Shown here: positions 8,739-12,020 of the stretch, one piece after another
Numbering within the stretch: the stretch's first letter is position 1
Layout: every line of letters starts with the position of its first letter
Position numbers and translations under genes: made by a program
The notes under the pieces: model-generated
Databases searched by the model: none
What the model was told of the DNA's origin: nothing
The model's input: the letters and a program-made list of their open reading frames with translations, nothing else
Source of the DNA: an uncultured bacterium
Lineage (GTDB): Bacteria; Krumholzibacteriota; Krumholzibacteriia; JACNKJ01
NCBI GenBank assembly: GCA_963695095.1
Contig: CAVOFT010000001.1
Coordinates: 960,001 to 1,024,000 of the forward strand
Direction of reading: 5' to 3'
Length of the DNA stretch: 64,000 bases

Positions 8739-9032
8739 ATGAACAAGGCTGAACTCATCGATCGCCTGGCTGCGGCCAGCGGTCTCGCCGTGAAGGACGC
8801 GCGGAGCGCCGTGGACCACCTGTTCGCCACGGATCCCCGCAACGGCGTCATTGCCAATGCCCTTGCCGGTGGCGAGAAGGTGCAGATCACCGGCTTCGGC
8901 ACCTTCGAACTGCGCCAGCGCAAGGCGCGCACCGGGCGCAACCCACGCACGGGCGAAGAAATCGCCATTGCCGCGAGCCGAGCGCCGGCGTTCTCGGCCG
9001 GCAAGAGCTTCAAGGAACGCTACAACGACTGA
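8739..9032 (+). CDS. hup: HU family DNA-binding protein
   Basis: MNKAELI...GFGTF...RTGRNPRTGE...PAFSAGKSFK. Confidence 0.95.
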   Translation: MNKAELIDRLAAASGLAVKDARSAVDHLFATDPRNGVIANALAGGEKVQITGFGTFELRQRKARTGRNPRTGEEIAIAASRAPAFSAGKSFKERYND

Positions 9033-9077
9033 CCCGATGCGCGGGTTGGAGATGCAAGCAAGGAGAGTGGAGTGACC

Positions 9078-10430
9078 ATGCATAGCCTGCGAAGCCGCCT
9101 CAGCGGGGGCGGACTTGTGCTGCTAGCCATCCTCAGTGCCGGCGGGCTGCGCGCGGCGCTTGCCGACGTGGACGTGGTGATCGGCTACGAGACGCGCGCC
9201 ATCGGCGAACTCGACGAGTGTGGCTGAAAGAGCAAGCAGAAAGGCGGCGCTGCCCGGCGGGCGGCGCTTATCGAGACCCTGCGTGAAGAGAACGAGCACG
9301 TGCTGATCCTCAGCGGGGGCGACAACATCTCCAATCAAGCGGATCGACAGTGGGAGCGGCAGTCGCGCCTGCTGATGGATCTCCTGGGCGACATGGGCCT
9401 CGACGCGACGGCCGTGCAGGCCCAGGACCTGCTGCTGGGCCTGGACGTCCTGCAGGGTTTCGGCGCGCAGGAAGGCTACGCGCTGCTCTGTGGCAACCTC
9501 ATGGACGGCAGCGGCAAGGCGGTGTTTCCGAGCTACCGGATCTTCGAACTCGGCGGCAAGAAACTCGGCGTGCTGGCGGTGACGGACCCTCGGCTTCAGC
9601 ACGGGGTGCAGAAGATGCCGGCCGGGCTCACCTTCGCCGATCCCGGGCCGGTGATGGAGGCCGGCGTGCGCGCGCTGCGCGAGCATGAGGGCTGCGCGGC
9701 CGTTGTGCTGCTCTACGGCGGCCGGCGCGAGCAGGCGCTCGAGGCCTGCAAGACCTTGACTGGCGTCGACCTGATCTTCTTCGGCAACTCGACGATCAGC
9801 CAGCGGGTGCCGACCGAGACGGAGTCGGGCGTGCCCGTCTACACGGCGGGAAATCGGGGCAAGGACTTCGGGGAGATCCAGCTGACGCTGAAGGATGATG
9901 GGTCGGTGGCGCTGTCACCGATGCAGATCCACGAGCTGGACAAGAACTACCCGGAGCAGCCGGAGGTGGCGGCGCGCGTGGCGGCCCTGAAGGCGGAGCT
10001 GGATGCGGAGAAGCAGCGAACGCAGCTGATCGAGCAGCTGGCGCGGCAGACCAGCGAGACGGAGGTGACGGAGGCCTTTCTCGGCTCGGAGACCTGCAAG
10101 CGCTGCCACGAGGCGGAGTACACGTCGTTCATGGCCACCGCGCACGCCCAGGCGCTGGCGAGCCTGGAGCACGACTTCCAGGACAACAACCCGGACTGCG
10201 TGAGCTGCCATGTGACGGGCTGGCAGCAGCCGGGAGGCTACGGACTGGATGCGGTGAACCGGAACAAGCTGAAGGGCGTCCAGTGCGAGGCCTGCCACGG
10301 CTATGGAACGACGCACGCGCGGAACCAGCCGGCAGCGAGCGAACCGGCCGCGATGTGCCTGCGTTGCCATGATGCGGCCAACAGCCCCGAGTTCAACTAC
10401 AAGCGCTACTGGGAGAAGATCAAGCACTAG
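9078..10430 (+). CDS. UshA-like (seleno)protein fused to a tetraheme cytochrome c554-like domain; Sec predicted at TGA 9225-9227
   Basis: ATG 9078 and signal peptide are in frame with ORF 9300-10430 across one TGA in ELDECG-U-KSKQKGGAARR; GGDN motif; four CxxCH motifs; hairpin after TGA. Confidence 0.85.
9246..9268 (+). promoter_or_regulatory. Putative bacterial SECIS hairpin
   Basis: GGCGCUGCCC-GGC-GGGCGGCGCU stem-loop; loop starts with G about 28 nt after the UGA. Confidence 0.65.
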
Positions 10431-10441
10431 GGGAGAGGGCC

Positions 10442-11137
10442 GTGCGCGCTGTCTGCGGGGTCCTGACGGCCTTGCTGTTCCTCGGTCTCATCGATGCCCG
10501 GCAGAGCGAGGCGAGCGGCCCGCTCCCGCCGGGCTTCTTCATGGAGTACCGCGTCGAGTCCTTCAGCGAAGGCCGCCGCAGCGAGGAGCGCTTTCGCCTC
10601 GTCGTGCGGGAGGCCCTCGACGCCGATCGCCGCTTGCTCGAACTTAGCCTGGATAGCGGCAGCGCCTACCGCGCCGTCTATCAGGCAGGTGGGGGGGGGC
10701 AGGGCCCCTTTGCCGTGGAGCGCTTCGAACGCGTCGAGGGCCTGCAGGACGGCCAGTGGCAGCCGCTGGTCCCGGCGGAGATCGAGCTGCTCACCCTCCT
10801 GGCCGACATGCAGGACCGCATCGAGCGCGGCCACGCCGAGGCGGACAGCAGCATCTCGGTGGGCGGTCGCGCCTGGCCTGCCCAGCGCTACAGCCTGACC
10901 GACAGCAGCGCCACCGTCCAGCGCAGCGCCAGCGTGACGCTCACCCGGCAAGTGCTGGCCCGTGGCACGGCCTGGGTCGCCGCCGATCTCCCCTTCGGCG
11001 GCTGGATTCGCTTCGAGGAGGAGCGGCAAGCGCGCAAGATCTCGGAGCTCGGCGGTCGCCGCTTCGTCGGCGAGCTGGAGACCAGCCGCGAGCTCTGGAC
11101 CCTCGTGGCGCTGAGTCCGGCTGCTCTCAACAAGTAA
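10442..11137 (+). CDS. Secreted hypothetical protein
   Basis: GTG start after GGAGAG; hydrophobic signal peptide; host-like codon usage. Confidence 0.65.
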   Translation: MRAVCGVLTALLFLGLIDARQSEASGPLPPGFFMEYRVESFSEGRRSEERFRLVVREALDADRRLLELSLDSGSAYRAVYQAGGGGQGPFAVERFERVEGLQDGQWQPLVPAEIELLTLLADMQDRIERGHAEADSSISVGGRAWPAQRYSLTDSSATVQRSASVTLTRQVLARGTAWVAADLPFGGWIRFEEERQARKISELGGRRFVGELETSRELWTLVALSPAALNK

Positions 11138-11399: not shown

Positions 11400-11612
11400 A
11401 TGAGTAATACGAATCCGGGCGTTGCCACGTCGACCTTTTTGGAACGTGAGCTGGATTCAAACAAGAAATACGTCAAGTTCCACAAGCTGCTTGCCAAGGC
11501 CGAAAAGGAGGGCCGGATCGACGGACGCTATGCCTGTCCGGTATGTGGCATGCGCTTCATGGTCTGGGATGAAGCGGACACCTGCTGCAAGCAACTGCCG
11601 GGCATGAAGTAG
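11400..11612 (+). CDS. Small Cys-rich putative zinc-binding protein
   Basis: YACPVCGM...DTCC. Confidence 0.7.
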   Translation: MSNTNPGVATSTFLERELDSNKKYVKFHKLLAKAEKEGRIDGRYACPVCGMRFMVWDEADTCCKQLPGMK

Positions 11613-11639: not shown

Positions 11640-12020
11640 ATGAAGCAGTACTGCTCCGTTTGCAAGGACCACCTCGACATGGCGGTGGTGGAAGAGGGCG
11701 GAGAGGACGAGGTTACCTGGCTGAAGTGTCCCCGCTGCAAGGGAATCCTGCCTCACATGAAGCTCGATGGCGAGGAGGAACCCGTTCCGGTCCCCGCCGC
11801 GGCGGCCTTCACGCTCGAGGGCATCGATACCACGAGCGTGCACGAGTACGAGCCGTCGCGGTTCTACGAAGTGGGCGATGTCATCTACCACCGGTCGTGG
11901 AATGACTACGGCCGTGTCGTGGAGAAGCTGATCCTGCCCGGGGATCGCCATGCGATCAGAGTGCAGTTCCTCAATCAGGGCGACGTCAACCTGCTCGAAG
12001 ATGTCAGTCACGGAGGCTGA
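11640..12020 (+). CDS. Zinc-ribbon protein with C-terminal SH3/Tudor-like domain
   Basis: CSVC...CPRC ribbon, then YEVGDVIYHRSWNDYGRV. Confidence 0.75.
   Translation: MKQYCSVCKDHLDMAVVEEGGEDEVTWLKCPRCKGILPHMKLDGEEEPVPVPAAAAFTLEGIDTTSVHEYEPSRFYEVGDVIYHRSWNDYGRVVEKLILPGDRHAIRVQFLNQGDVNLLEDVSHGG

Follow-up and report, generated by a model that had tools for sequence, protein, structure and literature searches.

We conclude that positions 9078-10430 (+) of the window, by which we mean the whole 64,000-nucleotide stretch of DNA analysed here, very probably form one gene that encodes an exported selenoprotein of the known UshA-like Cys-x-Sec family (Sec, selenocysteine), with the hairpin at 9246-9268 directing the decoding of its in-frame UGA; we put the probability of this reading at about 0.85. 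The gene on record is a fragment, and the true product is a 450-residue selenoprotein exported by a predicted signal peptide. The main value of the analysis is this corrected gene model, which replaces a 376-residue record. The protein is a divergent member of an already catalogued selenoprotein family, NF041198, haem fusion included. What is new is that the clade of the window protein scores below the cut-off of that family, that the protein keeps one of nine active-site positions, and that a partner gene is conserved downstream. The motif-loss clade and the partner leave the class of the finding unchanged, that of a known family, and provide two leads on family function: a conserved secreted partner, and a clade that keeps Cys-Gly-Sec and the haems despite motif loss.

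When the TGA at 9225-9227 is translated, a single frame runs from the ATG at 9078 to a TAG stop at 10428-10430 and encodes 450 residues, with Sec at position 50. The translation, with TGA read as U, matches NF041198 ("UshA_like_PCGU, UshA-like (seleno)protein") with an E-value of 1.5e-73 and 248.2 bits. Shine-Dalgarno-like elements were read from the sequence at 9060-9072 (+), namely AAGGAG (9060-9065) and GGAG (9069-9072), the latter ending 5 nucleotides before the ATG. By inspection, residues 1-29 (MHSLRSRLSGGGLVLLAILSAGGLRAALA, followed by DVD; 9078-9164 (+)) form a predicted Sec-type (secretory) signal peptide with a basic n-region, a hydrophobic core and A-L-A before the predicted cleavage site. 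The frame around the TGA reads GELDEC48-G49-[TGA]50-KSKQKGGAARRAALIETL, the residues downstream of the TGA beginning KSKQKGGAARR, and Cys48-Gly49-Sec50 are encoded by TGT GGC TGA (9219-9227 (+)). It then runs on into the listed open reading frame (ORF), which starts at a GTG (9300-9302 (+)) and ends at 10430.

The original prediction, made from the letters alone, held that the ATG at 9078 and a signal peptide read in frame through the TGA into the called ORF and that gene callers truncate the gene. Translation bears out the former, and the database protein for this very gene, P0002, illustrates the latter: it has 376 amino acids, is 100% identical and covers 83% of the query. Its close homologs in the protein collection are mostly 350-385 amino acids long. 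An AlphaFold model of the protein, built from the homolog alignment A2 described below, reached a predicted local distance difference test (pLDDT) of 87.9 and a predicted template-modelling score (pTM) of 0.80. Helix 11-25 of the predicted signal peptide had low pLDDT in the model, and residues 30-80 formed part of the domain, as well-ordered strands plus one helix (pLDDT at least 89). The 376-residue ORF has four CxxCH motifs but no export signal. Because it would be a c-type cytochrome without a signal peptide that starts inside a fold, we conclude that there is one gene here, not two.

Comparison with relatives was based on an NF041198 profile search of 41 genomes, the genome of the window and 40 relatives. 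All 41 contained matches, and a match to the N-terminal domain with one TGA was found in 40 of them, among the matches listed (150 of 264), the exception being G035. Twenty fetched loci and 12 further loci from the genome search were translated with TGA as U. Two were dropped because neither gave a complete ORF containing at least three CxxCH motifs (L033, L037), two stayed outside the protein alignment as near-duplicates (L030, L046), and L049 and L050 repeat L035 and L036. The resulting alignment, A2, contains 33 sequences, 21 of the TGA type and 12 without TGA. The TGA falls in the same column in 21/21 TGA-type sequences and is matched by Cys in 12/12 of the others, with the protein sequence conserved on both sides, so that every aligned homolog has Cys or TGA at the Sec position, as the original prediction required. 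Invariant in all 33 sequences are C48, G49, C/U50, G56, G57, R61, A62 and all haem Cys and His residues; the window protein accordingly carries the Cys-Gly-Sec/Cys motif before GG-x-x-RRA near its N-terminus. A read error is excluded by the recurrence of the TGA across genomes.

A recent exchange of the two residues may be visible in one pair of sequences. P0006, a 450-amino-acid protein of the public collection, has CGC and is identical to a same-genus TGA ortholog, L039 (388-1737), at 415 of 429 positions (97%). Of the 14 differences, 11 cluster near the Sec codon and the hairpin (residues 22-60), leaving only 3 for the other 390 residues. This crowding fits a recent Sec-to-Cys switch that freed the constraint of the selenocysteine insertion sequence (SECIS); recombination is another possible cause.

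The genome of the window encodes a full set of selenocysteine machinery, which the original prediction had named as a check: selA (429.8 bits), selB (336.8 bits, or 362.1 with a second piece), selD (342.4 bits) and tRNA-Sec (selC; 71.9 bits, called by ARAGORN as tRNA-SeC with anticodon TCA) all scored above their cut-offs. The selD match (G000:C1:69142-70107 (-); L018) carries an in-frame TGA of its own, a single one, which makes SelD a probable selenoprotein in this organism. The upstream HU gene ends with a TGA (9030-9032), which indicates that TGA is an ordinary stop here and not a general sense codon. From the comparative data and the machinery, the TGA at 9225-9227 is almost certainly a selenocysteine codon, and its UGA would be decoded by SelB and tRNA-Sec under the direction of a hairpin within the coding sequence. 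None of the findings named beforehand as refuting this (no Sec machinery, a misread TGC or TGT, homologs without Cys or Sec) applies.

The hairpin occupies 9246-9268 (+), with a 10-base-pair stem (nine G-C or G-U pairs and a closing G-U), a GGC loop at 9256-9258 and 28 nucleotides between the TGA and the loop; it is supported by folding and covariation. Its folding energy is -18.9 kcal/mol (z -2.83), and 3 of 200 shuffled sequences folded as well. Bacterial SECIS elements are described as having a loop of 3-9 nucleotides, an upper stem of 4-16 base pairs, a G in the first two loop positions, a distance of 16-37 nucleotides from the UGA and a minimum free energy of at most -7.5 kcal/mol (PMC13188914, in its section 5 and Fig. 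2), and the window hairpin lies within all of these ranges with its 3-nucleotide loop, 10 base pairs, 28 nucleotides and -18.9 kcal/mol. Because the DNA is GC-rich, fold energy alone is weak evidence, and it is the cross-genome comparison that carries the case.

That comparison used alignment A1, in which 22 distinct sequences are aligned without gaps from the TGA and columns 22-31 pair with columns 35-44. In this helix 85.9% of cells were paired, against 75.8 ± 1.4% in shuffled alignments (0 of 500 reached the observed value) and 40.9-55.0% when the partners were slid. Four of the ten pairs change on both sides, three are invariant, two vary on one side and one departs only by unpaired cells. 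Compensatory changes, which use wobble and variable codon positions, occur at columns 27-39 (CG in 8 sequences, GC in 8, GU in 2, UA in 2), 24-42 (GC in 14, CG in 5, AU in 1) and 30-36 (CG in 20, UA in 2). In minimum-free-energy folds, 6/6 Cys-type loci, which encode Gly-Arg-Arg-Ala, lack a stem at the hairpin site. The predicted 10-base-pair hairpin with a G-starting loop about 28 nucleotides downstream is thus confirmed, both by its geometry and by covariation.

If the TGA were a true stop, the locus would hold a 51-residue leader gene followed by a 376-residue cytochrome gene, or would be a pseudogene or the product of a sequencing error. This is how the protein collection reads the locus (P0002, 376 amino acids), and the wider context of the hairpin is unremarkable by energy alone. 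Such a stop is nevertheless very improbable: it would have to recur in one column of all 21 TGA-type sequences amid conserved sequence on both sides, beside Cys-type homologs of which one is 97% identical to a same-genus ortholog, followed by a hairpin that covaries, in a genome with the full Sec machinery. It would also leave a short ORF that encodes a c-type cytochrome devoid of an export signal and that starts inside a beta-alpha unit of the fold. Sequencing runs contained only small shares of the sampled words (0.05-0.11), and the matching sequences were all contigs. DNA contigs among them span the TGA at roughly 90-95% likeness (X1 record 2, 9126-9472; X2 record 9, 8852-10040). No difference is listed in them at 9225-9227, but 116 differences are unlisted, so that a kept TGA is not proven by these contigs.

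Several observations weigh against the reading of the gene as a SECIS-directed member of the UshA-like family. The stem overlaps the conserved Ala-Arg-Arg-Ala codons, so its pairing partly reflects protein constraint. The 85-nucleotide context of the hairpin is no more stable than shuffled sequence (z -0.06, 94/200) and was not used as evidence, and an Rfam scan of 9000-9500 returned four matches, with E-values of 0.38-7.3, all far below gathering thresholds and none of them a SECIS. The NF041198 score of 248.2 bits is below the curated cut-off of 275, the residue before the Cys is E (ECGU) where the family name has PCGU, and no neighbouring gene points to a substrate in Pfam and NCBIfam scans of the neighbours.

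The match to NF041198 covers two parts of the protein. The profile, of 519 positions, matched at positions 18-269 (the N-terminal domain) and 353-519 (the haem tail), which means that the haem tail is already part of the known family model. The genome search recovered the match in two pieces of 123.9 and 114.1 bits. The window protein shares with the family the position of Cys-Gly-Sec, the UshA-type N-terminal domain, the four-CxxCH c554-like tail, the coexistence of Sec and Cys forms and a SECIS hairpin inside the GG-x-ARRA codons. It differs in its score below the cut-off, in E-C-G-U for P-C-G-U and in the absence from its clade of Asp and His residues that other clades keep. NF041198 scored over its cut-off in only 9 of the 41 genomes, and among the matches listed for the genome of the window and 11 same-family genomes none did. 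With the clade below the cut-off, annotation based on that cut-off would probably miss the gene. A second model, NF049981 (UshA-like selenoprotein family 2, CxxU), gave 31.9 bits, below its cut-off of 140; the motif of the window protein is CxU.

The family is large, with 329 cluster representatives at E-values up to 1e-30. Among the best 150 of these 329, 68 carry C-x-C followed by GGxxRR, 49 of the 68 as PCGC. The start of at least 7 falls inside the GG-x-ARR stretch and that of others immediately past it, the pattern expected of proteins cut short at a Sec codon. Three relatives of about 1190-1210 amino acids (P0094, P0096, P0126) are larger fusions with an UshA-like unit, in which the query matches two stretches, best in the C-terminal 400 residues; P0126 begins with a C-D-C motif.

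The statement in the original prediction that UshA-like CxU selenoproteins and this SECIS geometry had been described holds (PMC2398784, PMC13188914, in the portions consulted). The family has been catalogued since 2008, when a "COG0737, UshA-like" CxU family appeared in the Global Ocean Sampling (GOS) selenoproteome table (PMC2398784). Its row there reads 76, 20 and 92, which, from the body of the table apart from its column headings, we take as numbers of Sec sequences, samples and Cys homologs. The family is also tabulated in two reviews (PMC9312934 and PMC13188914, the latter with NF041198). The consulted portions of these three papers (PMC2398784, PMC9312934, PMC13188914) assign no function to the family and mention neither a haem domain nor a function for it. 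A literature search joining selenocysteine, multiheme and nucleotidase found nothing within a scope that did not extend to supplements, which might list members or architectures. For selenocysteine in Krumholzibacteria the literature yielded a single paper, apparently unrelated (PMC8674449).

After the signal peptide, residues 30-291 (9165-9950 (+)) form a degenerate UshA/5'-nucleotidase-type metallophosphoesterase domain, assigned from Foldseek and a motif table, followed by a long linker helix (residues 295-326, 9960-10055 (+); DSSP on the model). The fold search was led by UshA and CD73: the top Foldseek matches were 5'-nucleotidases, with 5h7w at 2.2e-21 and E. coli UshA (1ush/2ush) at about 1e-20 (TMq 0.52-0.57). 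The protein shares with UshA and CD73 (PDB 1ush, 2ush, 4h1s) the N-terminal metallophosphoesterase fold and the linker helix, at Foldseek E-values of about 1e-20, but keeps one of nine motif positions, has an added CGU loop, and carries a tetrahaem domain in place of the C-terminal substrate-binding domain.

The loss of the active site was assessed against a canonical 5'-nucleotidase encoded elsewhere in the genome (L023), which has all five motifs (NDLHAH, DAGD, GNHE, SHCG, GGHSH). L023 was added to A2, and nine positions of motifs I-V were scored. The window protein keeps only the Asp of motif II, the other positions being changed from D to R, H to I, N to A, H to Q, E to D, H to G, H to N and H to T. 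The proposed replacement of GNHE by QAQD was recovered by BLASTP against the canonical 5'-nucleotidase P0089, which placed AVQAQDLLLG opposite MLGNHEFDDG, and by a profile-anchored alignment that agrees. Ten other sequences that group with the window protein (L039-L048 and P0006) share the degenerate pattern. In other clades of the family, motifs I and II still have their Asp, motif IV its His and motif V the first of its His residues, and the whole family conserves Cys-Gly-Sec/Cys and the haem domain. The CGU loop occupies the position that motif I would take in the dimetal site.

A protein of this fold could still be a phosphoesterase or nucleotidase, or a SoxB-like thiosulfohydrolase, with a dimetal centre and the haem domain as an accessory. 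Weak SoxB matches (NCBIfam TIGR04486 at 6e-13; PDB 4uwq by sequence at 1.5e-6) go in the same direction as the UshA fold. The TIGR04486 score of 47.9 bits is, against this, far under the cut-off of 550, the Pfam scan gave no Metallophos match and no 5'-nucleotidase C-terminal domain (PF02872) at E-values up to 1, and only one of the nine scored positions is kept. Given this single remaining motif residue, we conclude that the protein is not a phosphoesterase, and hardly any likelihood attaches to a retained dimetal activity.

The protein ends in a cytochrome c554-like tetrahaem domain (10081-10427 (+)), supported by Pfam PF13435, PDB 1bvb and the invariant haem Cys and His residues. The four CxxCH motifs that the original prediction placed at its end are present at 10095-10109, 10197-10211, 10284-10298 and 10356-10370 (residues 340, 374, 403 and 427). 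Pfam matches of the protein were limited to Cytochrome_C554 (PF13435; 59.7 bits, gathering cut-off 20.8) and related haem families, and PDB matches by sequence included cytochrome c554 (1bvb, 2.4e-10). The domain resembles cytochrome c554 (PF13435, 1bvb) in the spacing of the four CxxCH motifs and in a His within the conserved TAHA stretch. At about 115 residues it is shorter than the 1bvb chain (211), and it is a fused module, not a free electron carrier. In A2, the haem domain has only three invariant or nearly invariant non-motif His residues (H356, H413, H450), which leaves one of the four haems without a conserved sixth His ligand. Taken together, the comparative TGA/Cys column, the predicted signal peptide and the four CxxCH motifs support the original prediction of an exported, probably selenium- and haem-containing protein.

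In P0043 and P0054, the same c554-type module comes immediately after AhpC/Redoxin thiol-peroxidase domains. These fusions share with the window protein the order of a Cys-based redox domain and then a c554-type haem module, and differ in the fold of the N-terminal domain and in that no Sec was seen in them. They are the closest analogy for how the window protein might work. Four such proteins of about 660-690 amino acids were found (P0043, P0049, P0054, P0055), with AhpC/Redoxin and a c554-like module, the architecture being confirmed for P0043 and P0054; proteins of the P0043 type may represent another class of haem-wired thiol enzyme.

The mature periplasmic protein would thus consist of a degenerate metallophosphoesterase fold with a CGU loop, a linker helix and a c554-like domain with four covalent haems. 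Outside the haem domain, C48 and U50 are the only invariant side chains in A2 apt as ligands or redox groups. Because they are the sole such invariants, the motif residues are lost and the c554 module elsewhere follows thiol-peroxidase domains, we tentatively propose, at somewhat less than even odds, a selenenylsulfide/selenol-thiol couple of Cys48 and Sec50 in electron exchange with the four haems. With this couple, the protein would be a haem-wired periplasmic oxidoreductase, partnered by a secreted LolA-like protein encoded 11 nucleotides downstream. The "redox protein" label of the original prediction stays an inference.

The two residues could instead ligate a metal ion or a haem, with catalysis at a selenium- and sulfur-ligated site, for which the Cys-ligated haems of sulfur-oxidising cytochromes provide a comparison. 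Such ligation would suit the haem without a conserved sixth His, and the placement of the CGU loop at motif I would suit a metal, since the Asp residues (motifs I and II) and His residues (motif IV and the first of motif V) kept by other clades could hold one near CGU. The clade of the window protein, however, has retained CGU without those Asp and His residues, so that a metal site of this kind is not universal to the family, and a five-coordinate haem, as is found in cytochrome c554, would need no extra ligand. We regard ligation as unlikely, though likelier than the dimetal enzyme considered above.

The conserved partner gene (10442-11137 (+)) begins 11 nucleotides after the selenoprotein stop and encodes a 231-amino-acid secreted protein, for which no Pfam or NCBIfam family match was found. 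A homolog of about 230-260 amino acids lies directly downstream in 20 of 23 TGA-type loci (L059-L068, L027-L032, L034, L038, L055-L058), including 10/10 same-family genomes examined; in G004, G009 and G011 it adjoins a second UshA-like copy, not the copy first examined. The loci L027-L032, L034, L038 and L055-L058 carry a related partner subfamily, and the two groups are homologous, as an hhalign comparison of them gave 96.7% probability (E 4.2e-10, 236 columns). Gene order conserved among close kin counts for little; across families with about 30% protein identity it counts for more. The partner is missing from three loci that form one paralog group (L041, L046, L047), where only about 285 nucleotides of flank were covered. 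It was downstream in 0/6 Cys-type loci, three of which (L035, L036, L053) have another conserved lipoprotein there.

The structural model of the partner (pLDDT 87.8) weakly resembles LolA, LolB, LprG, RseB, CT021 and ependymin-type open barrels. Foldseek returned 3buu at 8.5e-5 as well as LolA, LprG, RseB and CT021, with template-modelling (TM) scores of only 0.24-0.35. VIA Z values ranged from 9.1 to 8.1 (ependymin-like, 2yzy, RseB, CT021, LolA-type carrier), against noise of about 7-8, and the ESM Atlas yielded only clusters named "hypothetical protein", plus one CT021 cluster at 0.92.

The TGA-type UshA-like gene and its LolA/RseB-like partner might together be an undescribed two-part periplasmic selenium enzyme, a reading that we consider doubtful as a whole, and more so than ligation by Cys48 and Sec50. 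The role of the partner would be to hold a substrate that is hydrophobic or dissolves poorly, such as elemental sulfur or selenium, polysulfide or a lipid peroxide. The Cys-Gly-Sec loop would reduce or oxidise this substrate, perhaps beside the haem without a conserved sixth His, and electrons would pass through the four haems, the old dimetal site being wholly lost in the clade of the window protein.

The three loci without the partner represent a second TGA-type paralog in three same-family genomes (G004:C1, G009:C3, G011:C20). It has the motif CGU-PTK and a Cys-containing insert before the C-terminus.

The gene upstream of the selenoprotein gene (8739-9032 (+)) encodes an HU/IHF-type DNA-binding protein (PF00216, 9.2e-29) and stops at the TGA at 9030-9032; an LptD-like gene also lies upstream. 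Neighbours in other families were scanned over 105 of 114 stop-to-stop frames of at least 100 amino acids, from nine loci with 1.5-kilobase flanks; the nine frames of L030, near-duplicates of L027, were left out. An HU gene was upstream in 6 of the 8 TGA-type loci scanned (L027, L028, L031, L032, L034, L038) and in 0 of 2 Cys-type loci, L029 being uninformative because its upstream frame was masked. HU (PF00216), at these six loci, was the only family found in the scan, which detected no sulfur, selenium or electron-transfer neighbour.

Between 8500 and 11500, predictions of regulatory sites were uninformative, with 0 promoter-like and 2 terminator-like sites against 1.4 expected. On the + strand, no promoter- or terminator-like site was detected between the HU gene, the selenoprotein gene and the partner gene. 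A contig from an RNA library (X4 record 20, 8976-9191; 3 differences in 216 nucleotides) runs from the last part of the HU gene into the first part of the selenoprotein gene. This hints weakly at co-transcription and is no proof of a single transcript, and the library may also contain DNA. After the partner gene, two small ORFs at 11400-11612 and 11640-12020 (+), with no family match for either apart from a sub-threshold Pfam Phage_tail_3 match in the second (17.7 bits, threshold 24.2), carry paired CxxC motifs and are zinc-ribbon-like.

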